DNA from: Clostridia bacterium
Lineage (GTDB): Bacteria > Bacillota > Clostridia > Oscillospirales > Acutalibacteraceae
Length of the DNA stretch: 36,416 nt
Direction: 5' to 3'
NCBI GenBank assembly: GCA_044426425.1
Contig: JAWXUN010000001.1
Coordinates: forward strand, 1-36,416
Shown here piece after piece: positions 6,600 through 29,582 of the stretch. The notes under the pieces are model-generated. The model was not told the origin of the DNA and ran no database searches. It saw only the letters and a program-made list of their open reading frames with translations. Position numbers and translations under genes: made by a program. Numbering within the stretch: position 1 is the stretch's first letter; each line of letters opens with the position of its first letter.

Positions 6600-6600
6600 T

Positions 6601-10039: not shown

Positions 10040-10126
10040 TAAAGACCTCCTTTAAACAAAAAAAGCAAAGCAAAGAACTGAAAATTTAAAATAAAAAATT
10101 CAGCCTTTACCTTGCCTTAAGTTTAA

Positions 10127-10318
10127 CTATATTAAAATAATTATAAATTGTAAATGCAATATTGAGGGATAGAAAAATTTCACTTTTCTATCTAACAAAT
10201 CTGTATTGATATAAAAATTTTCTGAATAACCTGCAAAAAGCAAGTTATCTTTTCCTTGTTTTTTATTATATATTTTCATGTCACCACGCAAAATATTAAT
10301 AAGTTTTTTTAATTTCAT
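10127..10318 (-). CDS. Hypothetical small protein (63 aa) between mobC and the relaxase gene
   Basis: ATG 10318 (MKLKKLINIL...) preceded by GAGAGGTGGG. No family recognised. Confidence 0.35.
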   Translation of the reverse strand: MKLKKLINILRGDMKIYNKKQGKDNLLFAGYSENFYINTDLLDRKVKFFYPSILHLQFIIILI

Positions 10319-10722: not shown

Positions 10723-13700
10723 CGCTCAACCTCATTAGATAAACTTTTTTTAGGCTCTTGTTGTGTTTTTTGCTGTGGGTTTTCGGCTTTAGACTCTAAA
10801 CTCATTTCTGTTTCAAGTTTTTCTAATTGCTTAACTTTCTCACTTAAAATATCTTCTTTTGTAAACGGTTTACTCAATTCACTTTTAGCTGTTTCAAGCT
10901 GATTTTCAACATTTTCAAGCATATTTTTATTGTGAAATATTTTGATTTCGACTCTATCAAGTTCGTTATCAATTCTCAAAATATTACCTCTTGGGTCATC
11001 ACCTAGTGTAATATGGTGACTGATTTCGCCTTTTAGTCTAAGATTATATTCATTAGAAAAAGTGTTGTAATGTAAAAACATATCCATTCCACGATAAGTT
11101 CCTAATTGCATTTCTTGTGCGTCTAGCAATGATTTACACTTTGTAATTAATGCAAGTCCTGCAATTTCTTTATCTTTATAGACAATATTATCTATTGTCA
11201 TATTGTTAAAAAAGTTCTCTTTTATAGGATATTTTTCTTTAAGCATTAGCATATCTTTTTCCAAGCCTGCAATTGCAATTTTGTAATTGTTTATATCTTC
11301 TGGGAATTTTTTTGTGATATTATCTTCAAGACGATAATGGATATTTTTATAATCTGCTTTTTCTATTTTTAATTTAGAAATTTCAAGCGACAAGTCCATT
11401 GCAAGTTTTAAGTTTGGGTCACCTGCACAAAGAGCCTTTACCTCTGCACAGCTTAAAGCAAACTCGTCTAAATCATCACAAGAACGAACAGGCGATTTTG
11501 AGGTCATAATTTGACTTATGAATTTTTGTTTTTTCTCTAGTGTTTGCCATAAATAAGCATCAAAAGTACCATCTGTTACATATCTAAAGATATGTGCTTC
11601 CTTGTTCATATTTCCTTGTCGTTCGATACGTCCACTACGTTGTCGCAAATCCCCTGGTCGCCATGGAGCGTCAAGGTCATGCATTGCGACAAGTCTGTCT
11701 TGTACATTCATGCCTGCACCACATTTTGAGGTGCTACCAATCATAACTCTAACAGAACCAGTACGCATTTTTTCAAAAAGTTTTTGTTTTTGAACCTCTG
11801 TTTTTGCTTCATGTATAAATGCAATTTCTTCTCGTGGAACACCTCTTGAAACAAGTTTTTCACGGATATCGTCATACACACAAAATTCTTTTGAATTTGC
11901 TTTTGCTTTTGGTGTAGACATATCACAAAAAATCAACTGTGTTAATTTTTCAGCTTTGTTATCTTCCCAAATCTTGAAAACATTATTAATACAAGCATTT
12001 ACCTTGCTGTTTGGGTCATCTGGCAACATAGTGTTAAATAATCGTTGGTCTAAGCCTATCTTTCGTCCGTCTGATGTTATTTTTAGCATATTGTCAGCAC
12101 TTGGGTCAACTTTTCTATTATGAACATCGGTGGAACGCTGGCTAAGGCTTTGTATCATTTCTTTTTGAATTTCTGTCGGCTGTGTAACCACATTTGTGTA
12201 TGTCATAGTTGGAGTTGGTAAATCTAGTTGGTCTGCTGTTTTGATGTCAGCAACTTCCTTAAACATATTCATAAGTTCTGGAAGATTGAAAAATTTTGAA
12301 AAACGTGTCCTTAGTCTAAAACCTGTTCCCTCGGGTGCTAGTTCACTTTCTGTTGATGTTGTTGCAAAAGTACTTGCCCACGAGTCAAAATGCATTAAAT
12401 TTTGTCTTTTTACTGTGGCATATTGTAAATATCTTTGCATTACATACAACTCTGACATTGAGTTCATTACAGGTGTACCAGTTGCAAATACTACACCTTT
12501 ACCACCTGTAATCTCGTCTAAATAGCGACACTTTAAAAGCATATCCGCTGATTTTTGGCTTTCAGTAGTACTGAGTCCTGCAATATTACGCATTTTTGTA
12601 AATACAAAACCATTTTTATATGCGTGTGCTTCGTCTACAACTAGCATATCAACACCAAGCTGCTCGAATGTTACTACATCATCTTTTTTGTAGTTTGCTT
12701 GCATTTTTTCAAGTCTTTCTTCAAGTTTTTTTCTAGTGCGTTCTAATTGCCTTATTGTAAATCTCTCACTATTTTTGTATTTAAGTTCATTAATACCAGT
12801 TAAAACTTCTTGAATTTGTTCATTAAGCATTCTTTCTTGTCTTTCTTGAGAAATAGGAATGCGTTCAAATTGACTATGTCCTATGATAATTGCATCATAT
12901 TCACCTGTGGCAATTCTTGCACAGAATTTTTTGCGGTTTTTTGTTTCAAAATCTTTTTTTGTCGCTACTAAAATATTAGCAGACGGATATAATCGCAAAA
13001 ATTCTCCTGCCATTTGTTCTGTTAAGTGGTTAGGAACTGCAATTAAGGCTTTATTACATAAACCTAAACGCTTTTTCTCCATTACACCTGCAATCATTTC
13101 AAAACTTTTACCTGCTCCAACTTCATGAGCGAGTAATGTATTGTTGCCGTAAATAATACGAGCGATTGCATTTATTTGATGTTCTTTTAATGTTATTTCT
13201 GGATTAATTCCACCAAAAGTAATATGACTACCGTCATATTCACGAGGTCTTGTTGAATTAAATTTATCGTTGTAAAGTCTTGTGAGAAATTGCCTGCGTT
13301 CTTGATTGTTCCAAATCCATTCCCTAAACTTTTCTTTAATTGCATCTTGCTTTTGCTGTGCAACTTCTGTTTCATTTCTATTAATGACTCTTTTTTCTTT
13401 GCCGTCAATATCCGTAACTGTATCATAAATTCTTGTATCACGAAGATTTAGACAATCTTCTAAAAGTCTATACGCATTTGCTCTTTCTGTACCAAAAGTC
13501 GCTGTTGCTAAAACATTATCAGAACTTATAGCATTTTTAGATGTGATATTCCACTCACCTGTTACTGGTGAAAAGTCTACATTAATACCATAACTACTAT
13601 TATAACCTACTTGCAAATAATCTGGTGTTTGTAAAGTTTCATACATGAATTGTCGGATATATTTTTTATCAATCCAAGTTGCACCTAAGCGAACTTCAAT

Positions 13701-16700
13701 TTCACTTGCTTCGAGGTCTTTTGGTTGGACAAGTTCTAGCATATCTATGTGATTTTGAAATTCGGGATATTTGCTTACTATACATTTGACCTCTCCTAGT
13801 TTTTCTCTTACATTACCACTCAAATACTCGTCAGCTGTGAAAAATCTTGCTTTTTCGTTTTCTTCTCCACAATGTAGAGGGTCTTTGAATATTATTCCAT
13901 TTAGTTCGACTACAAGTCTATTTAAATCGTACTTATCACCGAGCAACTCTGCCATATAATTAACATCTACATAGCCTTTTTTGCCTATTGATATAGCTAA
14001 TGCTTCTGATGGTGTTTCTGCTGATGTTGGAATAACAAAGTTTTTGATAGTTCTTTTTGTAAAAATTGCTGATTTTTCTTTCAAAGTTCCATCATCATTT
14101 AGGTTTTCGAGGGAAGTTAATAAATGATAGGAATTATCTTCAGCTAAAGCCTTTGCGTTGGCTTTACTGCTTATTAATCCATGCTTTTTAGTAAAACTAT
14201 CATATATTTCATTTAATTGTTTTTGGCTTTGTTCAATCGCTTCAGAGCTGTATTCTTCAAGTTGCAAGCGTATAACTTCATTCAAACAGGACCTTACTTC
14301 AATTAAACCTTTTATTCGGTCTAAATTGTTTTTTTGTAAGGTCATTGTTGAATTTTGGCGATAATACACATTATTATCAATAACAGCATAAGAATAATTT
14401 TTAACTCGTGGGTCAGCAGGAACTACATCGTTTTTATTAGAATTTTTTTCGCTAATCTCTTCAAAACTACTCTCAAAGTCGATTTCTCCAACGATATTAT
14501 TAATAGCTTTGTCGAGTTGTTCGCTTAGGTTAGCACCCTCAAACGCTGTGCAAGTACTTTTCATGCCGTACTGGCTTGATACCATTTCCATTTTACCAAG
14601 CACCATGTGAGGATTTTCTACAAAGTAGCTGTTAATAGATATATTGTTTTCATCATATCCCAAGTGTGCCCAGTCGCATTCAATGTCAATTGGTCGCTCT
14701 CTTTTTTGTAAAAATATAATATCAGACGTAACATCTGTTCCTGCGTTAGCCTTGAATGCATTGTCTGGAAGTCTTATCGCACCCAAAAGTTCCGCCCTTT
14801 GTGCGAGATATCTCCTTACTTTTGGATTTTCCTTATCAAGTGTTCCTTTTGATGTCACGAAAGCAACTACACCTCCTGCCCTTATCTTATCTAGTGATTT
14901 TGCGAAAAAGTGGTCATGAATAAGGAAGTTATTTTTTTCATATTTTCGCTCATATAATTTGTAATTTCCAAAAGGAACATTACCAATAGCAACATCAAAA
15001 AAATTGTCGGGATATTCTGTTTTTTCAAAACCTTTGATATCAATATTTGCTTGTGGATATAGTTTTTGAGCAATTCGCCCAGTTACCGAGTCTAGTTCCA
15101 CACCGTAAAGATTAGAATTTTTCATATTCTCGGGTAACATTCCGAAAAAGTTTCCAACACCACAGCTAGGCTCGAGGATATTTCCAGTTTCAAATCCCAT
15201 ATTTCCAATTGCTTTATACATCGCATTAATAATTGTTGGTGATGTGTAATGTGCATTTTGAACAGTTGCCCTAGCATTAGAATACTCTTCATCATTTAAC
15301 AATGATTTTAGTGTGTTAAAATTGTTGTTATTTTCTTCAAAAACTTCTGCTAAACCACCCCAACCAACATATTTACTCAATATTTCTTTTTCGCTGTCCA
15401 TTGCTAGTCGGTTTTCGCTTTCAATTGTTTGCAAAGTTTCTATTGCTTCAATGTTGTTTCTAATTTTCTCGGACTTTGTTCCGATACCTAAATTATAATT
15501 TGTAATATGATAATTTTCTTCTATTAGTTCTTCTTTTTTCTCAAGTTTAAAATTTTGGTGAGAAATATTGTCAAACCAAGTAATCATAAAACTTTTCAAA
15601 TCTGCAACTACCTTTGGTGATACATCATCTACTGAATAGTATTGTCCTATTGAGTCTTGAAGAAAAGATGTAGGATAAATTCCATTGTTTTCTATTTTAA
15701 AGGTAATTTCTGGGTCACGCATCAAATCTCCGTTTTGCTCGTAGTAATGAGCAATGCTATATTCACCATAACCAATATTTTCAATAACTAAATCTTCATA
15801 GCCTTCTGATTTAAACTTTAGATAATCTGTTTTATTTTCAATGATTGGTTGCATATATGGGTATAGCTTTTTATATAAGTTTTGTTCGGTTCTATTTGCA
15901 ACTGGAGGAGCATTTAGACTATCTTTCCATGCCTTAAACTTATCATAAACCTCTGATGTCATGCTATCGCCTAAAATTTCACCACGAGGATTTATTGATG
16001 TTGTTTGAGTGGTATACACCATATCACCACTTTTACCAACTTGGTATTTGACTCCGTCTATGTTATATCCAATCACATCTCCGTCATTGTACTTAGAATA
16101 GTCAATATCTAAATCATGAAAATCTTTAAAAAATATTAATTCTGGACTTTGATTTTCTGATACTATATTTTTCTTTTCCCAAACAGCTAAAGCTTCTGTT
16201 AGTTCTTCACCTGTGTAACCTCTAAAATTTTCATTAATAGAGTAATCAGACTTGCTAATTTCTCTTGCTTCAATCTCAACTTTTAAGGCATTAAATTTAT
16301 ATGTATCATTGATTTTAATGACTTTTTCTATCCACTCTTCTTTAGGATAAAATTTTTCAGCATCATCATTGATTTTTGCAACAGCAAGTGGTGGTAAACT
16401 ATCTCCATAGATTTTAACTGTTCCTGTTTCACTAATATGTGCAACTGTTTTGTAGTCATTGCTTTCTGTATCTAAATAATTCCAAACAGTTGTACCGTTA
16501 CCTAAATTCCCATAACCTAAAGCAAATTCCTTGCCTTGCTCATTTGTAAAAACTTCTAACTCCATATCCACAAAATTACTGCTACTTTTTACAAATTCAC
16601 TAGCGATTGAACTATACATGATTGTTTTTGATGTGTTAATTGCAGGCTCGTTACTATCTTCTAATAATATTTCTGACTCGTCTAAATCATCAAAACCATT

Positions 16701-18389
16701 CCAAACATCATCAAGCACTAGTTTTGCATTTTCATCAACAATTAAACCTGCTGTTTCATCTCCATATTCTTCATGTTCTAGTAAAAAATAATCTTTACCA
16801 TTTCTAACATCTTTGTCTATAACATACCAAGTTCCAATATGTCCCTCAACTTCAATGTTGTCACTTTTTTCATCTAAAATAATATTTTTTTCTGTACCTA
16901 TCTCTTTTTTATCAGCTGTGATATAATTTGTTTTAACTTGCTCGTTTTCTTTCTCGCAAACAAGAACATTATAACCTTTTGCGTTTAAATAATTTGTATA
17001 CATATCTAGTGAGTGTGCAGGTATGCCAACCATAGTGACTTTTTCGTCACTATTAATAGATATATTTCTTTTAGTTAAAGTTAAATCTAGTTTTTCAGCC
17101 ATTATTTCGGCATCAGCGTTGTAAGCTTCAAAAAAATCACCTAAGCGATATAGTAATATATCATCTTGGTGATTTCCTTTTACATCTAAATAGCCTTGGT
17201 AAAATGGCTTGTATTCTAAAGAAATAGCGGACTCACTTGGTGCTTGTGCACTTTGTTCGTCCGCTATTGGTTCTGCTATATTTGTAAACAAGTTTGTTTG
17301 TTCGCTTGTTACTTGGTCTTGCTTTAGTTGTATATCAAGTCCTTTATCACGAAGTTCTCCGCTTCTTCGTTCAAATTCATCATGTGCCTTGCCCACTCTA
17401 TCGGATATTCCTCTTTGTTCGGTGGTGGGTTTTTCTCGAGGGACTGGCTCATTATTGTTGCTATTCTCTCTTTTGCTATCCTGTGTATCTCGTGTAGATG
17501 TGGGAACAGGGTCATGCTGAGGACTAAGTGATTGTACAATCCCGCTTTGTGCTCCTTGAGGTAATCTCTCCTCATTATTCCATATTTCCCTAGAGGTTTC
17601 ACTGGTTGTTCCTCCATTTCTAAGTCTGGAAGATACACGTTGCCTGCTTTCTTGTAATTGAAGTTGTTGTTTATCATATTGTTTGCTCCTCTCAAATAAA
17701 TATATGGTTTTTGATATATCTGTCAAAACTGGTTTAAGATTTTGGCTTATCGCTGTTCCTATCTCTGTTATGTTTTGTACAGTTTCGTTGTTAAAGATAA
17801 TCGAATGTTGTTCTTGCTTAAAAACTTTGCTGTTATCTTTGCTTAGTTTGCCGAGCAAAGAATATTCAATACTTTTTTCGAGAACAATTTTGAAATTATT
17901 TTGTTTGGTTTCGCTTATCTCACTATTATCATACTCCAAACTTATATTATTTGCAAGTTTGTGGATAGCGTTTTCTATATTTTCTTCATCAACACCATAT
18001 TTTTCACTAAACATTTTTTTTAGTGGTTCAGAATACTCTTCGTTAAAATTCCAAGTATATGGTGTTTTTGCATTTTTCTTTTCGTTAGTGTCTGAAATAT
18101 CAAAAACATATCTAATTTTACAAGTTTCATCTTGTGGGTCAATTAGAGCAATTCCAGAAGCACCAGACCTAACATAACGGTTCATTTTGTTTCCCCACAA
18201 ACGATATTCTGCACAGGCGGTGGCTTTTGGATTTTGTGCATATATCAAAACTTGCTCATGATAATCATATTTGTGAAAATTCGACATTACACTCAGTAAT
18301 TCACACCATTTAAGTGAATTTTCTGCTGTGTTTTGACTTGTTTTTGTATAAACTTCTAAATATTTGTTATATTTTTCAATATTAGCCAT
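10719..18389 (-). CDS. Polyvalent protein (2556 aa): ArdC-N-like, disordered linker, MutS-domain-I-like, LPD-type modules, N6-adenine DNA methyltransferase, SNF2-family helicase, coiled-coil tail
   Basis: Uninterrupted ORF; ATG 18389 behind AAGAAAGAGG. Motifs were located by hand (see the domain features below). Confidence 0.9.
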   Translation of the reverse strand: MANIEKYNKYLEVYTKTSQNTAENSLKWCELLSVMSNFHKYDYHEQVLIYAQNPKATACAEYRLWGNKMNRYVRSGASGIALIDPQDETCKIRYVFDISDTNEKKNAKTPYTWNFNEEYSEPLKKMFSEKYGVDEENIENAIHKLANNISLEYDNSEISETKQNNFKIVLEKSIEYSLLGKLSKDNSKVFKQEQHSIIFNNETVQNITEIGTAISQNLKPVLTDISKTIYLFERSKQYDKQQLQLQESRQRVSSRLRNGGTTSETSREIWNNEERLPQGAQSGIVQSLSPQHDPVPTSTRDTQDSKRENSNNNEPVPREKPTTEQRGISDRVGKAHDEFERRSGELRDKGLDIQLKQDQVTSEQTNLFTNIAEPIADEQSAQAPSESAISLEYKPFYQGYLDVKGNHQDDILLYRLGDFFEAYNADAEIMAEKLDLTLTKRNISINSDEKVTMVGIPAHSLDMYTNYLNAKGYNVLVCEKENEQVKTNYITADKKEIGTEKNIILDEKSDNIEVEGHIGTWYVIDKDVRNGKDYFLLEHEEYGDETAGLIVDENAKLVLDDVWNGFDDLDESEILLEDSNEPAINTSKTIMYSSIASEFVKSSSNFVDMELEVFTNEQGKEFALGYGNLGNGTTVWNYLDTESNDYKTVAHISETGTVKIYGDSLPPLAVAKINDDAEKFYPKEEWIEKVIKINDTYKFNALKVEIEAREISKSDYSINENFRGYTGEELTEALAVWEKKNIVSENQSPELIFFKDFHDLDIDYSKYNDGDVIGYNIDGVKYQVGKSGDMVYTTQTTSINPRGEILGDSMTSEVYDKFKAWKDSLNAPPVANRTEQNLYKKLYPYMQPIIENKTDYLKFKSEGYEDLVIENIGYGEYSIAHYYEQNGDLMRDPEITFKIENNGIYPTSFLQDSIGQYYSVDDVSPKVVADLKSFMITWFDNISHQNFKLEKKEELIEENYHITNYNLGIGTKSEKIRNNIEAIETLQTIESENRLAMDSEKEILSKYVGWGGLAEVFEENNNNFNTLKSLLNDEEYSNARATVQNAHYTSPTIINAMYKAIGNMGFETGNILEPSCGVGNFFGMLPENMKNSNLYGVELDSVTGRIAQKLYPQANIDIKGFEKTEYPDNFFDVAIGNVPFGNYKLYERKYEKNNFLIHDHFFAKSLDKIRAGGVVAFVTSKGTLDKENPKVRRYLAQRAELLGAIRLPDNAFKANAGTDVTSDIIFLQKRERPIDIECDWAHLGYDENNISINSYFVENPHMVLGKMEMVSSQYGMKSTCTAFEGANLSEQLDKAINNIVGEIDFESSFEEISEKNSNKNDVVPADPRVKNYSYAVIDNNVYYRQNSTMTLQKNNLDRIKGLIEVRSCLNEVIRLQLEEYSSEAIEQSQKQLNEIYDSFTKKHGLISSKANAKALAEDNSYHLLTSLENLNDDGTLKEKSAIFTKRTIKNFVIPTSAETPSEALAISIGKKGYVDVNYMAELLGDKYDLNRLVVELNGIIFKDPLHCGEENEKARFFTADEYLSGNVREKLGEVKCIVSKYPEFQNHIDMLELVQPKDLEASEIEVRLGATWIDKKYIRQFMYETLQTPDYLQVGYNSSYGINVDFSPVTGEWNITSKNAISSDNVLATATFGTERANAYRLLEDCLNLRDTRIYDTVTDIDGKEKRVINRNETEVAQQKQDAIKEKFREWIWNNQERRQFLTRLYNDKFNSTRPREYDGSHITFGGINPEITLKEHQINAIARIIYGNNTLLAHEVGAGKSFEMIAGVMEKKRLGLCNKALIAVPNHLTEQMAGEFLRLYPSANILVATKKDFETKNRKKFCARIATGEYDAIIIGHSQFERIPISQERQERMLNEQIQEVLTGINELKYKNSERFTIRQLERTRKKLEERLEKMQANYKKDDVVTFEQLGVDMLVVDEAHAYKNGFVFTKMRNIAGLSTTESQKSADMLLKCRYLDEITGGKGVVFATGTPVMNSMSELYVMQRYLQYATVKRQNLMHFDSWASTFATTSTESELAPEGTGFRLRTRFSKFFNLPELMNMFKEVADIKTADQLDLPTPTMTYTNVVTQPTEIQKEMIQSLSQRSTDVHNRKVDPSADNMLKITSDGRKIGLDQRLFNTMLPDDPNSKVNACINNVFKIWEDNKAEKLTQLIFCDMSTPKAKANSKEFCVYDDIREKLVSRGVPREEIAFIHEAKTEVQKQKLFEKMRTGSVRVMIGSTSKCGAGMNVQDRLVAMHDLDAPWRPGDLRQRSGRIERQGNMNKEAHIFRYVTDGTFDAYLWQTLEKKQKFISQIMTSKSPVRSCDDLDEFALSCAEVKALCAGDPNLKLAMDLSLEISKLKIEKADYKNIHYRLEDNITKKFPEDINNYKIAIAGLEKDMLMLKEKYPIKENFFNNMTIDNIVYKDKEIAGLALITKCKSLLDAQEMQLGTYRGMDMFLHYNTFSNEYNLRLKGEISHHITLGDDPRGNILRIDNELDRVEIKIFHNKNMLENVENQLETAKSELSKPFTKEDILSEKVKQLEKLETEMSLESKAENPQQKTQQEPKKSLSNEVER
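11520..13193 (-). other. SNF2/DEAD-like helicase domain of the polyvalent protein
   Basis: Walker A HEVGAGKSF (GAGKS at 13104-13118), DEAH box VVDEAH (12624-12635), motif VI QRSGRIERQGN. Confidence 0.85.
14685..15512 (-). other. N6-adenine DNA methyltransferase domain of the polyvalent protein
   Basis: SAM-binding motif I ILEPSCGVGNFFG and catalytic motif IV NVPFG (14967-14981). Confidence 0.85.
16950..17204 (-). other. MutS domain I-like module of the polyvalent protein
   Basis: DDILLYRLGDFFEAYNADAEIMAEKLDLTLTKR...MVGIPAHSLDMYTNYLNAKGYNV parallels the MutS N-terminal block (F[YF]R.GDFYE.F..DA...a..L.i.LT.R ... cG.P). Confidence 0.65.
17324..17677 (-). CDS. TnpV-like protein (117 aa) encoded out of frame inside the polyvalent gene (candidate overlapping gene)
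   Basis: ATG 17677 with GAGAGGAG (17686-17693) 8 nt upstream; the frame is stop-free to 17324. ...GNVYLPDLEMEEQPVKPLGKYGIMRRDYLKEHKAGLYNHLVLSMTLFPHLHEIHRIAKER...PIEWARHMMNLNEEAENFVIKDLIYN follows the TnpV family pattern as I recall it. Confidence 0.5.
   Translation of the reverse strand: MINNNFNYKKAGNVYLPDLEMEEQPVKPLGKYGIMRRDYLKEHKAGLYNHLVLSMTLFPHLHEIHRIAKERIATIMSQSLEKNPPPNKEEYPIEWARHMMNLNEEAENFVIKDLIYN
17700..18389 (-). other. ArdC-N-like (DUF1738-type) ssDNA-binding domain of the polyvalent protein
   Basis: FHKYDYHEQVLIYAQNPKATACAEYRLWGNKMNRYVRSGASGIALID fits the ArdC N-terminal pattern (yS..N..Li..Q.p.AT.v..y..W...gR.VkkGekGI.i). Confidence 0.6.
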
Positions 18390-18463: not shown

Positions 18464-19255
18464 TTATCGACAATCAAAATCATTTTCTTTATTATGATTT
18501 TTTATTCTAGCAATTTCTAATATTTTTCTTAACCTATATTGTATATGTTTTTCAATAGATAAAAGCCTTGCTTCTGGCAAATTATATCTTGAATGTCTAG
18601 TAAATTTAAAACCAATCAATTTTCTTAATTCTCTTATTTGTTTTAAACCTATTAATTCACTGCAAATTGTTTCAAATGAAAGTCTATATGGTGTTGTTCT
18701 TGTTTTTGCATACTCATTCAAATTTTCAAAATCTTTAGACATACCAAAATTAAATAAAGATAATCCATTATCAAAAATTGGTGCTGTGGATATTATTTTA
18801 CCACTTTTATTATCCCTTAAAACTCCAAAATTTCCAAAATGTCTATCTTCATTATAGATAACAGCATCGAAAATTAACATACTTTTTAAATCTTCTAAAG
18901 CTTCATTGCCTAAATTATCTTTGTAATAATCTAAATATGATTTCAAACTATCTCCTTTAAACAATCTACTTGCAGATATAAAAGATGTGTTAATGTCCGT
19001 AAAAAGTTTACACTTACAAGCTAATATACCTTTCCATTGTTCTAAATCATATTCTACTGCTTTTAGACCCATTTTTTTTGCTATTTGATATGCATAATAT
19101 TCGCTATATGGTTCGTTTCCAGTATTAATAGCACCTTCTGTACCACCTTTATATAAATATATTCCACTCGCTTTATCAAATCTCCAAGCTTTTCGGAGCA
19201 TACCATTAGTTGTTAATTCTGGTGATGTTGAAAAAGCTTGATTACTTTCTGACAC
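18464..19255 (-). CDS. HipA-like Ser/Thr kinase core, apparently 5'-truncated (possible pseudogene)
   Basis: Catalytic and Mg motifs YNEDRHFGNFGVL and APIFDNGLSLF are present. The first canonical start is GTG 19255. The frame stays open and protein-like for 40 more codons up to a TGA at 19376-19378, with no ATG, GTG or TTG in that stretch. Confidence 0.55.
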   Translation of the reverse strand: MSESNQAFSTSPELTTNGMLRKAWRFDKASGIYLYKGGTEGAINTGNEPYSEYYAYQIAKKMGLKAVEYDLEQWKGILACKCKLFTDINTSFISASRLFKGDSLKSYLDYYKDNLGNEALEDLKSMLIFDAVIYNEDRHFGNFGVLRDNKSGKIISTAPIFDNGLSLFNFGMSKDFENLNEYAKTRTTPYRLSFETICSELIGLKQIRELRKLIGFKFTRHSRYNLPEARLLSIEKHIQYRLRKILEIARIKNHNKENDFDCR

Positions 19256-19439: not shown

Positions 19440-21785
19440 TTATATTTCCATACTATTGTTATTTTTTCTAAGTCTTTCTAAAATTGATATTTTTTCTTTC
19501 TTAATAGCAACTGTTCGCTTGCCGTTGCTCATAATCATGTGCTTATTATCAACAGAATTGTGATGAACACTATAACCTAGTCTTTCCATTTCTTTTAGTG
19601 AAATATCTACAATAGAAAATGTTCCTCTAGGAGTTTTTACACTCTCACCAGTTCTTGCTGTTTTCACAATATCTGTTTGTTCTTCGTATTGCTTAAATTC
19701 AGACTCGGACAAATAACTGTTTTGCGACAACATACTACGTATTTTCTTTTCCACATAAGAAAAATTCATATTAACATCCATGCTTTTTAGAGTAAATGTT
19801 AACATAGAATTTTCATATTTCAATGTAATTCCTACATCAGAAAAATCAACAGAATTTTGTTCTAACGCTTCTGAATACACAAGTTCTAAATGTTCTTCAA
19901 TTATATCATAATTGTCCGTTTCTTGATATAATTTATATATATCAATTTTTTTCTCACTAAAATTTCCTGCTCCAGAACGAATGAAAAAGTCACAACTTTC
20001 AGAAATGTTTTCAATTTCAAACATACTTAAGGTGATTTCTGTTTCAATACTATTTTCACTTTCTAATTTTTCGGTTAATTTGATTAATTCTTCGTTATCT
20101 GAAAGAATATTGTTAGCTTCTTGTATTGATATTTCTTTGTGAGGATATCTATCCTCGTTAATTAATACATCAATATGATTTACAATTTCCTCATAAGAAA
20201 TTGTAAAAGGTTGACCGCTACGCTCAAAATATAAATCATCAGCTTTTGATTGGATAACATCTAAACAATCACCATATTCAGTATAGTAGGAACTATCTAA
20301 ATTTTTATAAAAATTCAAAACACTTTCAAGCTTTTCAGCTTTGGAACTGTCAGCTGTGAAAACATCATAAATTGCGAACTGTGATATTTGTGGTACAGGT
20401 TCAAAACTTGGAGCGATTAAAAAATTATCTATCAAATTTGAAATTTCATTTTTGTCTAAATCATAGGTCTTATCTCTTATTTTTACAAAATTTTCTAGTT
20501 TGTTAAAACCAAATCCATCAACGTAATGAAAACTTATAGTGTTATCTATATTAACACCGATAATATCACTGACAGAAAGTGAATGACCATGAAAATCTTT
20601 TGGTAAATCAAGATTAAATTTTGTATATATATTATTGAGAATTACATTTACATCATCAGTATCCATTCCTAAATCGCTACTGTAAACTACGTTATAATTA
20701 TCACGAGAAACAGACAAATTCGCTTTTGCAAGTTCATCTATACGCATAAATCTATAATCTCTATTGTCTGAGTCCTCTATTAATTGGTAAATAGCAAAGG
20801 AATGTGAAAACTCTAAAAAGTTATTTTCCACACTATTTGAATTGTTTTCTATTCCGTCCATTGTTTTTCTATAATTATAGTAATTTAACCATTCTGATTT
20901 TTTGAAACCGAAAAAAATATCAGCGTTGTGTTCACCTATATTTACAATATAGTCAGTTTTCACTTCTCTTTCAGTGTTATCTTGGAATAGCATATATGGT
21001 TTGCAAAATTGCAAATACTCACTTACTGCCGTTGGTGAAATTGTTAACGGAAGAAACGGCACTATTTGCATATTTGTATAACCATATAAACGCATTTCTT
21101 CAATGCTTGCAAACGATGGCAAATATTCAGTAGAAGTGTATGTTTCAAATGCAGATGTGTTATATAAGTTTTCAAAAATATCAATATACTCATAAAAATC
21201 TTGAACCTTTTTCAATGTGTGCAAGCTTTGGAATAAATCATCAAAGCCATTCCATACATTATTTATTATAATTTTTCTGTTTTCATCTGCAATAATATAT
21301 GGACTATCTTCGTCATGTTTGTTTTCAAGAAGAAAAAAATCTTTTTCCTCTACAATTGTAGAGTCTAAGGTAAACCAACCATTTCCCATGCCCTCAAGAC
21401 TTATCATTTCAGACTCGCTAGTGATTTTTTCGTAATTATTTCTAAAATCGGCTACTTCTAATTTTTTTGTGTGCTGAATATCTACAAGCTCTTCAATTTC
21501 TCCGTCAAAATCATCATCAGCTAAATAGCTAACTTCTTGTAAATTGTATTCTGTTATATCCCAAAAATTCGCATTTTCGGTACTGTCATGGAATAAACAA
21601 TAATTTGATTGATATTTTGCAAAAATTTCTCTTGCTTCTTGTTCGTTTTTGAAGTGATTAATACGTTCTTTTTCGGTGTAACCTATAATATCAAGTATAT
21701 GAGGTTTTATATTTTTTTCAGCTAATTCAGAACAATTAATTGTTAAAGCATTCTCGGCTATTTCATAAACTAATATTTCTTTCAT
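19440..21785 (-). CDS. Large YodL-domain protein with LPD-type modules (about 781 aa)
   Basis: YodL-like block FAIYQLIEDSDNRDYRFMRIDELAKANLSVSRDNYNVVYSS...FNLDLPKDFHGHSLSVSDIIGV...HYVDGFGF (about 20487-20807). Start set at ATG 21785 (MKEILVYEI) with AAAGGA 9 nt upstream; ATG 21818 is also possible. Confidence 0.8.
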   Translation of the reverse strand: MKEILVYEIAENALTINCSELAEKNIKPHILDIIGYTEKERINHFKNEQEAREIFAKYQSNYCLFHDSTENANFWDITEYNLQEVSYLADDDFDGEIEELVDIQHTKKLEVADFRNNYEKITSESEMISLEGMGNGWFTLDSTIVEEKDFFLLENKHDEDSPYIIADENRKIIINNVWNGFDDLFQSLHTLKKVQDFYEYIDIFENLYNTSAFETYTSTEYLPSFASIEEMRLYGYTNMQIVPFLPLTISPTAVSEYLQFCKPYMLFQDNTEREVKTDYIVNIGEHNADIFFGFKKSEWLNYYNYRKTMDGIENNSNSVENNFLEFSHSFAIYQLIEDSDNRDYRFMRIDELAKANLSVSRDNYNVVYSSDLGMDTDDVNVILNNIYTKFNLDLPKDFHGHSLSVSDIIGVNIDNTISFHYVDGFGFNKLENFVKIRDKTYDLDKNEISNLIDNFLIAPSFEPVPQISQFAIYDVFTADSSKAEKLESVLNFYKNLDSSYYTEYGDCLDVIQSKADDLYFERSGQPFTISYEEIVNHIDVLINEDRYPHKEISIQEANNILSDNEELIKLTEKLESENSIETEITLSMFEIENISESCDFFIRSGAGNFSEKKIDIYKLYQETDNYDIIEEHLELVYSEALEQNSVDFSDVGITLKYENSMLTFTLKSMDVNMNFSYVEKKIRSMLSQNSYLSESEFKQYEEQTDIVKTARTGESVKTPRGTFSIVDISLKEMERLGYSVHHNSVDNKHMIMSNGKRTVAIKKEKISILERLRKNNNSMEI

Positions 21786-21824
21786 GGGTAAAGTCCTTTC
21801 GTAATACAAAAACTGCATAGTTTT

Positions 21825-22481
21825 CTACACAGTTTTTGTTAGTATATTGTATTTTAATTTTCCTAGTTCAAATAATAATGCTAATCTAAAATCAACTATT
21901 TTAGATAACTTTTCGTTAGTTATTGAACTATATGCGTAATCATCTTTGTAGTAAATATATGGATATATCATTGTCATATCCACTTTCTCAGCTTTAATAA
22001 AGCCTTTTTTTAAAAGCGAACCTGCGGTACTTGAGTGTATCCCGTTATATACATAAGCGATATCTAAATCAGCAAAATAATAAGCTTTATGATTATTTGT
22101 AAAATTAATAAAATCATTTTTAGTAATTGTTAGAATTGATTTTACAAATTTTTCAATGCTCCAAGGTATAGTTATCACAGTAGATTTTGACAAATCAACT
22201 ACCACCTCTTCGTTTGTATAATGATTTTCCATAATTCTATTTTCGGTTATTACTGTAAAGGGTGCTAAAAAAATATCATTTAACTTTCTGCTAAAATCTT
22301 TATAAATAATATCACTTAACAAGCTATACTTTATATCACTTTTTACAATCTCAATTGCACTATTTAAGATAGTTATTTTTTCTTCGTCTGTACCTGCATA
22401 TTTTACAAGATAATTAACTTTCTTGAAAGCAAAAGTAAAATCCGTTAATGTTACTTTCTCTTTTTTGAAAAACTTAAACAT
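21825..22481 (-). CDS. Uncharacterised 218-aa protein, paralogue of 28569-29237 (cassette B, large gene)
   Basis: Shares NNH.A.Y...LD.AY..NG.HSS.AG...KKG.I.A...D.T..Y and DFRL.LLFE.GK.KY with the 222-aa protein. AAGGTGG SD overlaps the upstream stop. Confidence 0.75.
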   Translation of the reverse strand: MFKFFKKEKVTLTDFTFAFKKVNYLVKYAGTDEEKITILNSAIEIVKSDIKYSLLSDIIYKDFSRKLNDIFLAPFTVITENRIMENHYTNEEVVVDLSKSTVITIPWSIEKFVKSILTITKNDFINFTNNHKAYYFADLDIAYVYNGIHSSTAGSLLKKGFIKAEKVDMTMIYPYIYYKDDYAYSSITNEKLSKIVDFRLALLFELGKLKYNILTKTV

Positions 22482-22492
22482 ATCAAACCACC

Positions 22493-22873
22493 TTAGAAGT
22501 ATTTTTTTAGCATATTACTAATACCATACAATACTCTATCTTGCAATACGTTCTCGTAATGATTAAAATTAACGATGTCATTACATACATCAATATATTT
22601 TTGGTTTTTCATTGATATATCAAGAAGTATAAGTCTATCTAAATATGTGAAGTAATGAAAATTTTCAACAGATTTTTTTTCGTGCTTAATAGTCAATAAA
22701 CATTTGTAAAATTCTTTGATAACTTTTTTTGCCTCTTTATTTTCTTTAATGTTGACATCATAGCCATGATAAATATAATCATATTTATCATGTAGGAATG
22801 TAGTAACTACTTCAATAGAATTGTTTAATTTTTTGCGTTGTTTAAACACTTGCAATCCCTCATCGTGCATCAT
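22493..22873 (-). CDS. Uncharacterised 126-aa protein (cassette B, small gene)
   Basis: ATGATG at 22873-22868 overlaps the Toprim gene end by 14 nt. Weak similarity to the 113-aa protein at 29241-29582 (C-terminal ..LKKY[FL]). Confidence 0.6.
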   Translation of the reverse strand: MMHDEGLQVFKQRKKLNNSIEVVTTFLHDKYDYIYHGYDVNIKENKEAKKVIKEFYKCLLTIKHEKKSVENFHYFTYLDRLILLDISMKNQKYIDVCNDIVNFNHYENVLQDRVLYGISNMLKKYF

Positions 22874-23846
22874 TATATTGATAGTTTGTTTTCTTTTTAC
22901 AATTTGAAACTATTGCTTTTGGCATAGTATCTTTTGATTTTAAATTTTGCAAATCTTCGTTAAAATCTTTTGATTTTGGTGATTTTCTAATAACCTCATA
23001 ACCTTTTTCGGTGAAGTTTTCTTTAATTTTTTGACTATGTATAGTACCTCTTTCGTCTGAGTCAAGGCACACAACTATTGTTTTAATATTTTCATTTTTA
23101 GCTAAAAACTCTTCTAAAGGTGCTTGAGAAACTCCACCTAGTGACACTCTTGAGTCTTTTTTGTAATCTAAATCATACATTTGTGCTAGTGTTGCATGAG
23201 ATAAGGCATCAATTGCACTTTCAAAAACATATACCTTATCAGAATTTCCAACAATCTTAAAAGCATGATGTTTGTCCGAGCCTGTGCAATCAAGCTTAAA
23301 CTTACTTGTTTGTGATGTGCTCCGTAAAGACGCATATTTTGCTTGGTGTTTCTCGTCATATCCTACAAAGACAGCATTTCCATAATCATCTTGATAAATA
23401 TATTTTGCATCAAGCATATCTTTGACTATCTCTTTAGAAATTCCACGAGTTTGTGTTAAATATGCATAGACACGATTGTTTTTCTCACTTGCCTTTGGCA
23501 GTTGTAAGCATTGTGGTTTTAGTTGTACTTTAATTTCTTTTTTTGTAATTACTTGTTGAGGTGTTTTTTCGCCTATTAGTGTTTCTATCGCCTGTGAGAA
23601 GTCTTGATTTTCTGTTTTCATGAGAAAATCAATTGAGCCATAACCGCCGACATCTCGGCTGTGCCAGTACCATGTTTTGCAATCTCCCTTAATAGTAAGG
23701 CTCTGGTGTTGTTTACACCTGTATGATTTACCTAAAACGGCAAAGTCTAAGCTAAGATAAGATTTTAAAAAACTTAATAAATCAACATTTCTAGCTTGTA
23801 AAACTTCGTCTTTAGTAAATGATTTTGTGTTTGTGGATACTCTCAT
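22860..23846 (-). CDS. DUF3991 + Toprim domain protein (primase-like)
   Basis: N-terminus ...ARNVDLLSFLKSY...YRCKQHQSLTI....WYWHS...GGSIDFLM, and a C-terminal Toprim-like segment VYVFESAIDALS...IVVCLDSDERG. Confidence 0.8.
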   Translation of the reverse strand: MRVSTNTKSFTKDEVLQARNVDLLSFLKSYLSLDFAVLGKSYRCKQHQSLTIKGDCKTWYWHSRDVGGYGSIDFLMKTENQDFSQAIETLIGEKTPQQVITKKEIKVQLKPQCLQLPKASEKNNRVYAYLTQTRGISKEIVKDMLDAKYIYQDDYGNAVFVGYDEKHQAKYASLRSTSQTSKFKLDCTGSDKHHAFKIVGNSDKVYVFESAIDALSHATLAQMYDLDYKKDSRVSLGGVSQAPLEEFLAKNENIKTIVVCLDSDERGTIHSQKIKENFTEKGYEVIRKSPKSKDFNEDLQNLKSKDTMPKAIVSNCKKKTNYQYNDAR

Positions 23847-23906: not shown

Positions 23907-23973
23907 TAAATTTCTTTTTTATAAACAAAAAAGTCCTACAAAATTAATTGCAGGATTTTTACTGTTATTTTTT

Positions 23974-24939
23974 TTATCTCTCGTCATAACTGTAATTATG
24001 ACGTTTATTTTTATCTTTTTCTCTTTCTAAAGCAGGTTGTAATATAAGTTTATATCTCGACTCAATGCCTTTTTTCATAAATTCTTTTGCTATATCTGAT
24101 GTGACTTTAAGTTCATTATATTCATTAGGTAATTCATCTATAATAGAATAAATTTTATTAATATCTATCATCGGAACTATTTTCTTAATGGCTTTGTTTA
24201 ACTCGGGGATATCTTGAGTTTTGAAAAATTCATAAGGTATAATTAAATCACCATTTTCATCTTTAAAAACAGAAGCAATTTTCTTGCATTGCAATTCATC
24301 TAATTTATCAATTCTATTTAACATCTCTTTGTCTGAAAATTTATTATTAAAGCTATTACCATTATCAAAAACTGGTGCTAGTCTAACATCGCCATTGACA
24401 AGAAGTCCCCAGTTTCCATTGTTTCGGTCATTGTTATATAAAAGTGTATCTATTATAAACATTGTCCAAAAATGTTCTAAAACTTTATCAACTCCCACTT
24501 GTTTAACCAAGTGATTATTTTTGATATCTATTAATATTTCTTTTAAACTTACATCACCACTGTTAGAATAACTCTCCATAGCATTTACATGATATAAATT
24601 TTTGATGTTAGAAAAAACATTTAACCTTGCTTTTTGTTCTAATTTCTCAAACTCAATATCTTTACAAATGACTACCAGTTTATTATTATACACTCCTAGT
24701 TTCGTGTCATGTACTGGAACACCTATACTTCTATAAATTTGAGAACCTATAAACTCGGATAGAGGTGATGTTGTATATGATATTTTAATGTTACGTAACC
24801 CAAAGGTATTCTTAGGAAATTTTAGCATATAATATTCATTCTCAAATATAATTCCAAGTTTTAAACCTGCATTACCACCATAGCTTAAATTTGATAATTT
24901 ACAATTATCAAGATTATATATCTTAGTCATCATCTTCAC
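23974..24939 (-). CDS. HipA-like Ser/Thr kinase (short, about 320 aa)
   Basis: Gly-rich loop YGGNAGLK, then YMLKFP, catalytic LLYNNDRNNGNWGLL and Mg-binding LAPVFDNGNSF. Start is ambiguous (GTG 24939, ATG 24933 or ATG 24930); every option overlaps the upstream gene end. Confidence 0.8.
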   Translation of the reverse strand: MKMMTKIYNLDNCKLSNLSYGGNAGLKLGIIFENEYYMLKFPKNTFGLRNIKISYTTSPLSEFIGSQIYRSIGVPVHDTKLGVYNNKLVVICKDIEFEKLEQKARLNVFSNIKNLYHVNAMESYSNSGDVSLKEILIDIKNNHLVKQVGVDKVLEHFWTMFIIDTLLYNNDRNNGNWGLLVNGDVRLAPVFDNGNSFNNKFSDKEMLNRIDKLDELQCKKIASVFKDENGDLIIPYEFFKTQDIPELNKAIKKIVPMIDINKIYSIIDELPNEYNELKVTSDIAKEFMKKGIESRYKLILQPALEREKDKNKRHNYSYDER

Positions 24940-25201
24940 GATATGTCACACTCCCGTAAATTTCAAAAAAATAGTCCATTTCTCTCTCTGATATATTGCC
25001 ATTACATATTTCTATTTTTAAAAGAGGTTCTAAAGCTATAACTGCATCTAAAAAATAAATATCACCATCTTTTGTGTCTTTTAAATATAATTTTAGAATT
25101 TCATCTAATTTTTTAGGAAAGTGAACATATTTAACTTTTTTGATTATTTTATTTAATTTTTCGTTACCACACAAATCTTTAATACAACGCATTTTATTCA
25201 C
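24923..25201 (-). CDS. Hypothetical 92-aa protein translationally coupled to the HipA-like kinase (candidate antitoxin/partner)
   Basis: GTG 25201 or ATG 25192. No HTH is recognisable. TAA 24923-24925 overlaps the kinase start codons. Confidence 0.55.
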   Translation of the reverse strand: MNKMRCIKDLCGNEKLNKIIKKVKYVHFPKKLDEILKLYLKDTKDGDIYFLDAVIALEPLLKIEICNGNISEREMDYFFEIYGSVTYREDDD

Positions 25202-27942: not shown

Positions 27943-27978
27943 AAAAAAGGGCACTAGTTACAGTTAACTAGTGCCCTT
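27943..27978 (-). terminator. Strong Rho-independent terminator after the DUF4366 gene
   Basis: Perfect 14-bp stem aagggcactagtta (27947-27960) / taactagtgccctt (27965-27978) with a 4-nt loop, followed on the minus strand by TTTTGT. Confidence 0.85.
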
Positions 27979-27990
27979 TGATTATAATTG

Positions 27991-28572
27991 TTAATTTTCG
28001 TCCTCATCATGGTTTACTGGTGGTTCACCTACATAGTTTTCGTCCTCGTCATTCTCGTTAGATTTATATTTGTTTTGCTTGAAAACAAAGAAATAATAAA
28101 GGACACCTAAAACTGCAAGACCTACACCACAAAATACAATATTCATAACACTAATATCGGTGTTTGTTGTAGTTTGTGACGGTGTGCTTGGTTCTGGAGT
28201 TGGTTCGGAAGTTTCGTCTTTTTCGTCACTATTTTCCATTAAAGGCTCATTTTCCTCTGTTTCGCTTAAATCTAAAGGCACATTTTCACCGCTAGTAATA
28301 GCAACAAGGTCGGCTTCGTCAACCATATTTAAAAAATATACATTTTCTGTATCTTTTGTCTTGTCTATAACAATATAGTAATAGTTGCCGTCTTTTGTTT
28401 GTGCAATAATAAACTGTTTTTCTTCATCATCGGTAACTGTCACATCGTCAACTATTGTCATGTTTCCATCGGGAATTAGTGTATCATCATCGTCAACAGG
28501 GTCAGCAAAAACAGCTATCGGCAAGATGAAAATAAAAGCTATTACTAATAGCTTTGAAAATAATTTTTTCAT
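27991..28572 (-). CDS. DUF4366-family secreted/membrane-anchored conjugation protein
   Basis: Signal peptide MKKLFSKLLVIAFIFILPIAVFA. GNMTIVDDV...KQFIIAQTKDGNYYYIVIDK...NVYFLNMVDEADLVAI matches the DUF4366 pattern. A C-terminal TM segment is present. ATG overlaps the upstream TGA (ATGA). Confidence 0.8.
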   Translation of the reverse strand: MKKLFSKLLVIAFIFILPIAVFADPVDDDDTLIPDGNMTIVDDVTVTDDEEKQFIIAQTKDGNYYYIVIDKTKDTENVYFLNMVDEADLVAITSGENVPLDLSETEENEPLMENSDEKDETSEPTPEPSTPSQTTTNTDISVMNIVFCGVGLAVLGVLYYFFVFKQNKYKSNENDEDENYVGEPPVNHDEDEN

Positions 28573-29237
28573 TGTTGAATTTCTCCTTTTTGCAGTAAAT
28601 ACTTAATTTTTCCAATCTCGAATAATAAACCTAGTCTAAAATCTTCTAATCTATATATTTCTTTTCTACTATTGATATCAAAACATTTATCAGTATAAAA
28701 ATAAAATTTTTCGTATAAAATAGTAGTGTCTATTACATCTGCTAAAATTTTACCTTTCTTGTGTATTATTCCAGCTGATGAAGAATGCATACCATTTGAT
28801 ATATAAGCAAAATCTAAGTGAGTATAATAACAGGCTACATGATTATTTTCATCATATTTGAAAGGATTTTTTTTGATATAAATTAATTTGTCATACAACT
28901 TAACTTGCTCATAAGGGCGAACAAATACAATATCATCTTCTAAATCAATTGTTTTCTTCTCGTCTGTATAAGCACCAGTATTTATATAAATACCATTCAT
29001 AGGTTGCTTGTGGTCACGATAAAGAACTTTATTTAGTAAACTTGCTTGTATTTCTATCTTTATCATTCGCATAACTGAGTCAATGAAAATTAACTTATCA
29101 TCAAAATTATCAGTGGTATCTAAATATTTTTTTACAAATCTTATACAGTTTTCAAAATCCTCTTGTTGCAGAAGTTCTAAATCATATATTCTTAATTTTT
29201 CAATTTTATCCGTTAAAAATTTTTTCTTAAAAAACAT
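28569..29237 (-). CDS. Uncharacterised 222-aa protein, paralogue of 21825-22481 (cassette A, large gene)
   Basis: See paralogue. AAGGTG SD lies in the last codons of the upstream small gene, with a 3-nt gap. Confidence 0.75.
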   Translation of the reverse strand: MFFKKKFLTDKIEKLRIYDLELLQQEDFENCIRFVKKYLDTTDNFDDKLIFIDSVMRMIKIEIQASLLNKVLYRDHKQPMNGIYINTGAYTDEKKTIDLEDDIVFVRPYEQVKLYDKLIYIKKNPFKYDENNHVACYYTHLDFAYISNGMHSSSAGIIHKKGKILADVIDTTILYEKFYFYTDKCFDINSRKEIYRLEDFRLGLLFEIGKIKYLLQKGEIQQ

Positions 29238-29240: not shown

Positions 29241-29582
29241 TCACCTTAAATATTTTTTTAGTAAAAACATCAAATTATGATACAGTCCTATATCTAAATA
29301 GAAATTTTCAATTGAAACAACTGAAATTAGTTCATATATTGCAAGAACATAATTGCTTTCTTTCAAACAATTTTCAAAATTATGTAATATTAGAATATAC
29401 CAAAATGAATGAAGTTGTAAAAAACCACTAACTATTTTTGGATTTTCAATTTTTACATTCAGTAAAATGTTATACATTTTTAACAAGTCTTGCTTTGCAT
29501 CATTATTGTGTTTTGATTGACAATTATAATAATATGCTTGTTCTCTTAGATTTTCAAGTGTTATTTTATACAAATTATGCAT
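29241..29582 (-). CDS. Uncharacterised 113-aa protein (cassette A, small gene)
   Basis: ATG 29582 with AAGGTG 6 nt upstream. Helical-looking, with no recognised family. Confidence 0.6.
   Translation of the reverse strand: MHNLYKITLENLREQAYYYNCQSKHNNDAKQDLLKMYNILLNVKIENPKIVSGFLQLHSFWYILILHNFENCLKESNYVLAIYELISVVSIENFYLDIGLYHNLMFLLKKYLR

Follow-up and report, generated by a model that had tools for sequence, protein, structure and literature searches.

The ParB/sulfiredoxin (Srx) superfamily, to which ParB, Noc, KorB, Srx, SerK, Osa and DdrB-like ParB proteins belong, comprises binders of CTP, ATP or GTP, nucleoside triphosphate (NTP)-regulated DNases such as Osa, and phosphotransferases such as sulfiredoxin and SerK (PMC5512222, PMC12704722). 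On mobile elements, where orphan members are enriched, its domains are NTP-binding or NTP-regulated DNase modules and frequently occur joined to lineage-specific domains (PMC12704722, PMC5512222). We describe here a pair of adjacent genes, one small and one large, that occurs twice (cassettes A and B) in a 36,416-nucleotide stretch of DNA from a Clostridia bacterium of the family Acutalibacteraceae (GenBank assembly GCA_044426425.1, contig JAWXUN010000001.1, positions 1 to 36,416, forward strand), hereafter the window. The large proteins belong to Pfam family DUF6710, which resembles the superfamily in its predicted core topology and in the position of an invariant Gly-x-His motif at a strand-to-helix junction. 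DUF6710 differs from the superfamily in showing no sequence-profile link to it, in having serine where an arginine is expected, and in having no helix-turn-helix (HTH) and no ParA-binding motif; its model also has extra elements, namely a helical hairpin at the N-terminus, an inserted beta-hairpin and a helix at the C-terminus.

Among individual systems, Osa of plasmid pSa, as cited in PMC5512222, is a small stand-alone ATPase and DNase of the ParB/Srx fold that acts in fertility inhibition, a role in conflict and not in partition. Like DUF6710, for which that fold is predicted, Osa is encoded by a conjugative plasmid or element, and the likeness is one of functional analogy only; Osa retains the arginine of the active site, lacks a helical partner domain and shares no detected sequence similarity with DUF6710. 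In the KorB-KorA system of the conjugative plasmid RK2, too, a ParB-fold protein works jointly with a small all-helical one, and the complex 8qa9 is among the Foldseek matches of the large protein of cassette B. KorA is a DNA-binding repressor of the HTH type, and KorB contains an HTH of its own together with CTP-binding arginines, whereas no HTH was found in the window module, the small part of which stands on the N-terminal side and can be fused. Type II toxin-antitoxin operons resemble the module in their small-first order, translational coupling and location on mobile elements; the module departs from them in its natural fusions, in the existence of solo DUF6710 proteins, in having no antitoxin-type DNA-binding domain and in giving no sign of a separate promoter. 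The closest catalogued relative remains DUF6710 itself, which both large proteins of the window match from end to end and far over the gathering score; the window copies differ from it by a lost TDGxxW motif, and the small partner is found only in one clade of the family.

Firmicutes conjugative elements spread resistance and other traits, and many genes of their transfer operons have no known role. The present analysis turns two anonymous pairs of open reading frames (ORFs) into one defined and widespread module, DUF6710 alone amounting to about 700 clusters at 50% identity, and it identifies the obligate partner domain of that module, which lies outside the family libraries searched. It also offers a hypothesis that is concrete and cheap to address biochemically, namely nucleotide binding by a predicted ParB/Srx-like pocket that lacks the canonical arginine. 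Were this true, the reach of the ParB-CTPase fold would grow by a family probably missed by searches seeded with the Pfam ParB domain, and a candidate establishment or anti-defence factor would be added to Gram-positive conjugation. A recent survey of the ParB-CTPase fold took PF02195 as its query (PMC12704722); since no DUF6710 member matches PF02195, a survey seeded in this way probably would not retrieve the family. As far as the literature and databases searched show, the partner family, the split and fused relation, the recurrence of two copies per element and a ParB/Srx-like fold, as predicted here, that bears NGxHS have not been described so far.

The small and large proteins and their pairing

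The genes and motifs that make up the two cassettes are as follows.

22493-22873, minus strand: small B, 126 aa (ORF list)
21825-22481, minus strand: large B, 218 aa, Pfam DUF6710 (ORF list; Pfam E 3.3e-36)
22482-22495, minus strand: small-to-large junction of cassette B, in which the TAA stop overlaps a GGTGG ribosome-binding site 6 nt ahead of the ATG
22032-22046, minus strand: codons of N146-G-I-H149-S150 in large B, the strand-to-helix motif (translation checked)
21885-21893, minus strand: codons of D197-F-R199 in large B, opening the C-terminal helix (translation checked)
29241-29582, minus strand: small A, 113 aa, distant paralogue of small B (ORF; leave-out hidden Markov model E 1.6e-11)
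28569-29237, minus strand: large A, 222 aa, Pfam DUF6710 (Pfam E 4e-37)
28839-28847, minus strand: NNH motif of large A
28782-28796, minus strand: NGMHS motif of large A
28635-28643, minus strand: DFR motif of large A

Assignment of the large proteins to DUF6710 (PF20457) is clear, with 125.1 bits for large B (residues 3-213) and 128.2 bits for large A (residues 24-214) against a gathering score of 27 bits. An exhaustive search with the DUF6710 hidden Markov model (HMM), counted at 50% clustering, returned 710 representatives with E <= 1e-3, of which 318 had E <= 1e-10, and the plasmid homologues already carry the RefSeq label "DUF6710 family protein"; the family is catalogued and uncharacterised. 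Neither small A nor small B matched anything in Pfam, NCBIfam, PADLOC or PHROGs, and scans of all four cassette proteins against the last three of these libraries returned nothing. The small proteins are therefore an uncatalogued family, absent from the family libraries searched, with conserved residues that correspond in small B to N45, A48, K49, H73, Y77, Y93 and E107.

Conservation within DUF6710 was counted across 111 sequences, in the numbering of large B. The invariant residues are P106, W107, F124, N130, H131, Y135, N146, G147, H149, S150, G154, K158, G160, D197, R199 and E205, and nearly all of them are kept in both window copies (W107 is replaced by tyrosine in large A). Counts for the strand-to-helix motif are 108/111 for G147, 110/111 for H149 and 99/111 for S150, and those for the motif opening the C-terminal helix are 108/111 for D197 and 107/111 for R199; D197-F-R199 is a candidate phosphate- or metal-binding element.

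The two cassettes are related to one another throughout. Large B and large A share 35% identity over 179 aa (pairwise E 1e-35), and small B and small A share 30% over 94 aa (pairwise E 8e-5). An HMM built from the small proteins of other loci, from which the window copies and the close relatives of small B had been left out, gave E 3.9e-19 for small B and 1.6e-11 for small A, and the runner-up among the 117 window ORFs scored 0.075; the likeness of the small proteins is, by these profile comparisons, true homology. When the whole family is compared, small A and small B are 22% identical and large A and large B 33%, close to the family-wide means of 23% and 32% respectively. The nearest relatives of large B lie in other elements (69%, 63% and 42% identity), and those of large A in still other elements (35-37%). 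Identity at the family mean, together with nearest relatives in other elements, indicates that the duplication was not recent. Both large proteins retain the family-invariant residues, and the cassettes are, judging from sequence, either ancient paralogues or separately acquired copies, both under selection. A first-pass annotation, made from the DNA letters and their translations, had called the 218-aa and 222-aa proteins paralogues and the small proteins weakly alike, and had argued for a functional module over a recent duplication. The paralogy is borne out, distant as it is, the weak likeness proves to be homology, and the argument for function is strengthened by the recurrence of the pair elsewhere and by its natural fusions. 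That annotation had placed neither protein in a named family, which stands for the small proteins and is superseded for the large ones.

In both cassettes the small gene precedes the large one. A gap of 11 nt separates small B from large B, and the stop codon of the former overlaps the ribosome-binding site of the latter (TAAGGTGG); the junction as a whole, CTTCTAAGGTGGTTTGATATG, is parsed as CTTC-TAA-GGTGG-TTTGAT-ATG. This overlap suggests translational coupling in cassette B, and cassette A has the same layout with the same TAAGGTG stop and ribosome-binding-site junction, suggesting that the small and large proteins of each cassette are translationally coupled.

Outside the window, a small-family ORF stands immediately upstream of DUF6710 at nine more independent sites, which are distributed over eight other contigs. 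These sites, where, L010 aside, the small ORF encodes 110-125 aa, are given below with our locus designations.

L001: Clostridia metagenome-assembled genome
L003: NCBI metagenome-assembled contig
L004: Caldalkalibacillus thermarum
L006: Thermoanaerobacterium butyriciformans
L012/13 and L014/15: Logan contigs
L016 and L017: JGI metagenome contigs
L010: second site of this Logan contig

Among DUF6710 genes of the Firmicutes clade with readable upstream DNA, no copy lacked a small-family ORF. Confinement of the pair to this element would have told against the first-pass annotation, and its recurrence on other contigs and as fusions shows that it is not so confined. The word-indexed homologue search returned 3-8 proteins per query, and pattern scans found two loci in genome contigs, three in metagenomes and none in viral sequences; with so low a yield, co-occurrence rests on about a dozen loci and the fusions.

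The small and large parts also occur fused. The small-family HMM matches the N-terminal ~120 aa of the long DUF6710 proteins P0036 (1e-21), P0152 (4e-20), P0050 (7e-20), P0125 (3e-16), P0132 (4e-16) and P0099 (1.5e-8), and alignment adds six more, such that at least 6 and probably 12 of the 150 listed representatives are natural fusions, always in the same order. In a joint alignment the point at which the separate genes are split coincides with a basic linker of the fused proteins. Across 22 split or fused pairs, the pairwise identities of the small and large parts are correlated (r 0.76; 0/2000 permutations reached as high a value), which demonstrates long co-inheritance and is, taken alone, no proof of physical contact. 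Fusion, constant order, translational coupling and co-divergence together lead us to regard the small and large proteins, on comparative evidence, as a single two-domain protein that is often split. The comparison also shows that the split and fused forms interconvert.

The small partner, split or fused, is obligate in one DUF6710 clade only. More distant DUF6710 proteins, on Aeromonas, Providencia and Macrococcus plasmids and on contig L011, have no small-family ORF nearby, so that in those lineages DUF6710 can work without the small domain. The small domain also occurs apart from DUF6710. A 258-aa protein encoded at 5974-6750 of Bacillus mycoides plasmid NZ_CP020748.1 (L019) contains a small-family domain at residues 5-125 (E 2.9e-31), followed by ~130 C-terminal residues that are not DUF6710 and have no Pfam match; its gene neighbours encode LPD25, macro-domain, restriction-endonuclease and topoisomerase proteins. 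Fusion to an unrelated region in this protein indicates that the helical domain is a portable module.

Contig L010 carries a fused gene (P0036, 382 aa) at 7001-8149 and, 1.5 kb downstream, a split pair at 9632-10262 that is cut by the contig end, with an actin-like ALP gene and a ribbon-helix-helix (RHH)-like gene between them. The presence of two modules on L010 means that two copies per element are not unique to the window.

Predicted folds

The AlphaFold model of large B, computed from the 111-sequence alignment, has a predicted local distance difference test (pLDDT) score of 91.8 and a predicted template modelling (pTM) score of 0.87. It consists of a helical hairpin (residues 12-60), a beta-rich core (76-196), a beta-hairpin insert and a C-terminal helix (198-216), and the core begins with strand(s) and goes on with helix 109-121, strand 132-136, strand 141-146, helix 148-156 and strand 161-167. 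In a Foldseek comparison with the PDB, the first 28 matches of large B are sulfiredoxin, Noc, 1vk1 (a Pyrococcus ParB-like nuclease), SerK (a serine kinase) and Atu1540, which we take to have the ParB/Srx fold as well, and they are followed by KorB, PadC and ParB. The best PDB match has E 7.9e-3, probability 0.96 and a target-normalised template modelling (TM) score of 0.42. The independent viral library BFVD agrees, its top matches being ParB-like N-terminal domains, proteins of the ParB/Srx and DndB types and ParB-like nucleases, with a best E of 1.2e-3. Alignment of the DUF6710 family with human sulfiredoxin by hhalign, using a sequence that was checked against 1yzs, gave a single local match of AYVYNGIHSSTAGSLLKKGFIKAEKVD, a strand-motif-helix-strand element in which NGxHS stands opposite FGGCHR; under relaxed settings the match extends over the preceding helix, and the order of secondary structures (strand, helix, strand, strand, motif and helix, strand) is collinear. 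On these models the DUF6710 core probably adopts the ParB/Srx fold, which we hold to be probable and not established, and we do not file the family as a member of the superfamily.

Several results weigh against this assignment, and against the nucleotide-dependent role in DNA establishment or anti-defence that is proposed below. No match of large B in the PDB or BFVD reached E <= 1e-3, and target-normalised TM-scores were 0.34-0.45 over ~85-100 aligned columns. The hhalign match to sulfiredoxin alone, in the expected motif register, has E 0.02 and a probability of 2%, and the comparison with six aligned ParB/Srx sequences, taken from PDB-derived segments, has E 0.2 and falls in another register than the expected one. 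The Pfam ParB domain PF02195 matched none of the 111 DUF6710 members, even at E 10, and neither large B by itself nor the profile of the 111 family sequences found anything among PDB sequences. An arginine in the active-site pocket is typical of the superfamily (PMC5512222), and the position of this hallmark (GxxR; GCHR in sulfiredoxin) is occupied in DUF6710 by serine in 99/111 members and by histidine in 9/111. The link between DUF6710 and ParB/Srx is thus one of predicted structure, with weak statistics. No DNA-binding domain was recognised in the small or the large protein, and net charge and isoelectric point show no consistent acidic (DNA-mimic) or basic (DNA-binding) character in either family. 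The TDGxxW motif (residues 178-183), present in ~85-90% of DUF6710 proteins, reads YKDDYA in large B and its close relatives and TDKCFD in large A; the core motifs are intact in both window copies despite this loss. A literature search found no paper that mentions DUF6710 and no experiment on any DUF6710 protein.

The model of small B, computed from 15 sequences, is an all-helical bundle of five helices (pLDDT 85, pTM 0.80), for which Foldseek found only generic helical bundles in the PDB (best E 2.1). Identification of small B as a HEPN domain was considered and rejected, the top match having a probability of 0.08.

Conjugative setting and possible function

By its gene content the window is a conjugative element of Firmicutes. 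Recombination and mobilisation genes comprise a large serine recombinase and a relaxase of the MobA/VirD2 type, the latter accompanied by a NikA-like partner; there are also genes for a VirB4 ATPase and a CHAP hydrolase, for DUF4315 and CD1107-like proteins, for TopB and a DUF3991-Toprim primase, and for two further proteins, one polyvalent and 2556 aa long, the other of YodL/LPD18 type. The contig occurs in fish gut metagenome runs, and no close relative of the window was found among sequenced plasmids. Features adjoining cassette B are as follows.

22860-23846, minus strand: DUF3991/Toprim primase-like gene (Pfam), context and not part of the module
19440-21818, minus strand: YodL and LPD18 polyvalent-type protein, 792 aa (Pfam), context
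23934-23955, minus strand: terminator-like hairpin upstream of the Toprim gene (consensus scan only)

All genes around cassette B lie on the minus strand in a tight run that begins with Toprim and continues with small B, large B and YodL. The start of small B overlaps the last 14 nt of the DUF3991/Toprim gene, and the YodL/LPD18 gene begins 6 nt past the end of large B; the coordinates of the pair, its overlap with Toprim, the gap and the stop/ribosome-binding-site overlap within it, and the position of YodL downstream are as first annotated. The hairpin at 23934-23955 may show where the transcription unit with cassette B begins. A perfect palindromic hairpin of 15 bp followed by a T-run lies at 27946-27979 (minus strand), between the CD1107-like gene and the next gene, and is the strongest terminator-like site in the region. 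Promoter-like sites in the region are no more frequent than in shuffled sequence. Given a terminator-like hairpin upstream of Toprim and another behind the CD1107-like gene, and no excess of promoter-like sites, both cassettes look internal to transfer operons.

The other loci place the module in similar company. Most of the other sites with a small gene and DUF6710 have conjugation genes close by, and neighbours of the pair include type IV secretion system components, cell-wall hydrolases (CHAP or M23), CD1107-like proteins, VirB4, primases, TopB, single-stranded DNA-binding protein (SSB), ArdC, Fic, relaxases and polyvalent proteins. DUF3991-Toprim also lies beside DUF6710 in L011 and L016, and ~8.5 kb downstream in L001, where an LPD18 polyvalent protein is directly ahead of the pair. 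Of the plasmids that carry DUF6710, 29/38 are typed as conjugative, and no DUF6710 copy was found in the phage database or IMG/VR. Such surroundings fit the suggestion, made at first pass, of an unrecognised conjugation accessory pair.

The reading that we favour, and to which we give an even chance, is that the module is a two-domain protein of Firmicutes conjugative elements acting as a nucleotide-dependent accessory factor in DNA establishment or anti-defence. The small product would form the five-helix N-terminal domain and the large product the DUF6710 domain, the two being made together by translational coupling within a transfer operon and most likely assembling into one complex, as would the domains that a basic linker joins in the natural fusions. 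By analogy with ParB/Srx proteins, the invariant cluster N130-H131, N146-G147-x-H149-S150, K158, D197-x-R199 and E205, which includes the position where ParB, sulfiredoxin and Osa bind nucleotide phosphates, would bind nucleotide, and R199 might substitute for the missing arginine. The complex could then be a nucleotide-dependent switch or an enzyme (an NTPase, phosphotransferase or nickase) whose target, while the element is being transferred and is settling in a new cell, is DNA or a host factor, with the helical domain supplying recognition of a partner or target, and the two very diverged copies may differ in specificity. A role at the establishment stage is suggested because the recurrent neighbours (primase, SSB, ArdC, TopB and polyvalent proteins) work at that stage, and anti-defence activity would account for two very diverged copies in a single element; anti-defence was among the options listed by the first-pass annotation and is kept here as one. 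A bolder form of the same proposal, which we advance tentatively and consider unlikely, would make DUF6710 and its helical partner a new ParB/sulfiredoxin branch that lacks the typical arginine (NGxHS) and is confined to conjugative elements. In it the helical domain would be a portable adaptor, whether split off, fused or attached to other effectors as in Bacillus mycoides, and DUF6710 a nucleotide-dependent effector, either delivered to the recipient or made there early on, that protects or establishes the DNA coming in, the two copies countering different host targets.

A predicted ParB-like fold also invites the view that DUF6710 is a partition or maintenance accessory, a degenerate ParB-like centromere or DNA-clamp protein working with segregation or replication-termination machinery. 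Several neighbourhoods agree with this: the pair lies directly upstream of actin-like ALP and RHH adaptor-like genes in L004 and L010, a ParB_N gene adjoins DUF6710 in L011, a ParA gene is ~4 kb away on the Macrococcus plasmid, and a Tus-like gene adjoins on the Aeromonas and Providencia plasmids. The proteins themselves are less accommodating, as no HTH was matched by Pfam in the cassette proteins, the ParA-binding motif [LFI]G[KR]G[LFI] is absent from all four of them and the GxxR arginine is missing. The window element, moreover, looks integrating, in view of its large serine recombinase, no ParA or ParM gene lies beside either cassette, and two diverged copies per element would be unexpected of a centromere-binding protein. 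We consider a partition role unlikely. A type II-like toxin-antitoxin or abortive-infection pair, in which DUF6710 would be the toxin (for instance a ParB/Srx-type nuclease), the small helical protein its antitoxin and the two copies addiction modules, would account for the small-then-large order, the tight coupling, the two diverged copies and the joint divergence of cognate proteins; canonical PhdYeFM/ParE toxin-antitoxin genes are also near the pair in L003, and the DUF6710 protein P0045 ends in a RelB-like segment. Such a pair is hard to reconcile with covalent fusions of constant order in at least 6, and probably 12, of the 150 listed representatives, with the DUF6710 genes of the Aeromonas, Providencia and Macrococcus plasmids and L011 that have no small-family ORF, or with attachment of the small domain to an unrelated C-terminal region on the Bacillus mycoides plasmid. 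Nor does the small protein have a recognisable RHH, HTH or other antitoxin DNA-binding domain or any match to an antitoxin family; there is no PADLOC match, and the cassettes sit inside long co-directional operons in which promoter-like sites are no commoner than in shuffled sequence. Fusions, solo DUF6710, the small domain on another region and the position in packed transfer operons make this option, which the first-pass annotation had raised, quite improbable.

Immunity or exclusion had been raised there too, and an entry exclusion or immunity pair at the cell envelope would suit the position of cassette A between envelope-related transfer genes (the CHAP hydrolase, DUF4315 and the CD1107-like membrane protein), as well as an Imm_superinfect gene ~3 kb away in the Caldalkalibacillus locus. 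None of the four cassette proteins has a hydrophobic segment, however, the maximum 19-residue Kyte-Doolittle value being 1.37 or less against 2.64 in the CD1107-like control, which makes entry exclusion unlikely; both models are compact, soluble folds, and cassette B lies among DNA-processing genes. Taken together we regard this explanation as very improbable indeed.

Further observations on the window and related loci

Both cassettes are poor in G+C (25.5% in cassette B and 23.9% in cassette A, against 30.9% for the whole window). A perfect sigma-70 consensus (TTGACA, 16 nt, TATAAT; 12/12) lies at 22752-22779 on the plus strand, antisense within small B and directed at the end of the Toprim gene; in AT-rich DNA the estimated chance of one such site per window is ~5-15%, and it may be a coincidence.

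In the divergent loci L004 (10702-12126) and L010 (8198-9622), the module is directly upstream of an ALP_N/MreB-like_C gene and a small RHH-type gene, an arrangement that resembles a type II partition cassette. On the MOBH plasmids L008 (Aeromonas salmonicida plasmid 4) and L009 (a Providencia rettgeri plasmid), solo DUF6710 adjoins a gene for a "DNA replication terminus site-binding protein" (Tus-like).

Long DUF6710 proteins have heterogeneous C-terminal extensions, mostly without assignment. The RelB-like segment of P0045 is matched at E 3e-12, P0135 ends in a P-loop region with a weak Zeta-toxin-like match, P0022 and P0075 have in common an extension without assignment, and P0141 has a C-terminal extension of 232 aa in which a Fic/Doc-like HxFxxxN motif was seen by eye.

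The 2556-aa polyvalent protein of the window (10719-18389, minus strand) contains MutS_I, LPD18, DUF6908 and SNF2/helicase domains and is encoded upstream of the NikA-like and relaxase genes. A second duplicated family in the window consists of HipA_C-like kinases of 321 aa (23974-24939, minus strand) and 263 aa (18464-19255, minus strand), which share 30% identity (E 8e-11); the 321-aa protein matches the PADLOC candidate-defence family PDC-M03A at 8.5e-22. A 92-aa ORF without a family match (24923-25201, minus strand) precedes and overlaps the gene for the 321-aa protein, and in L001, likewise, an 88-aa ORF precedes a HipA_C-like gene.

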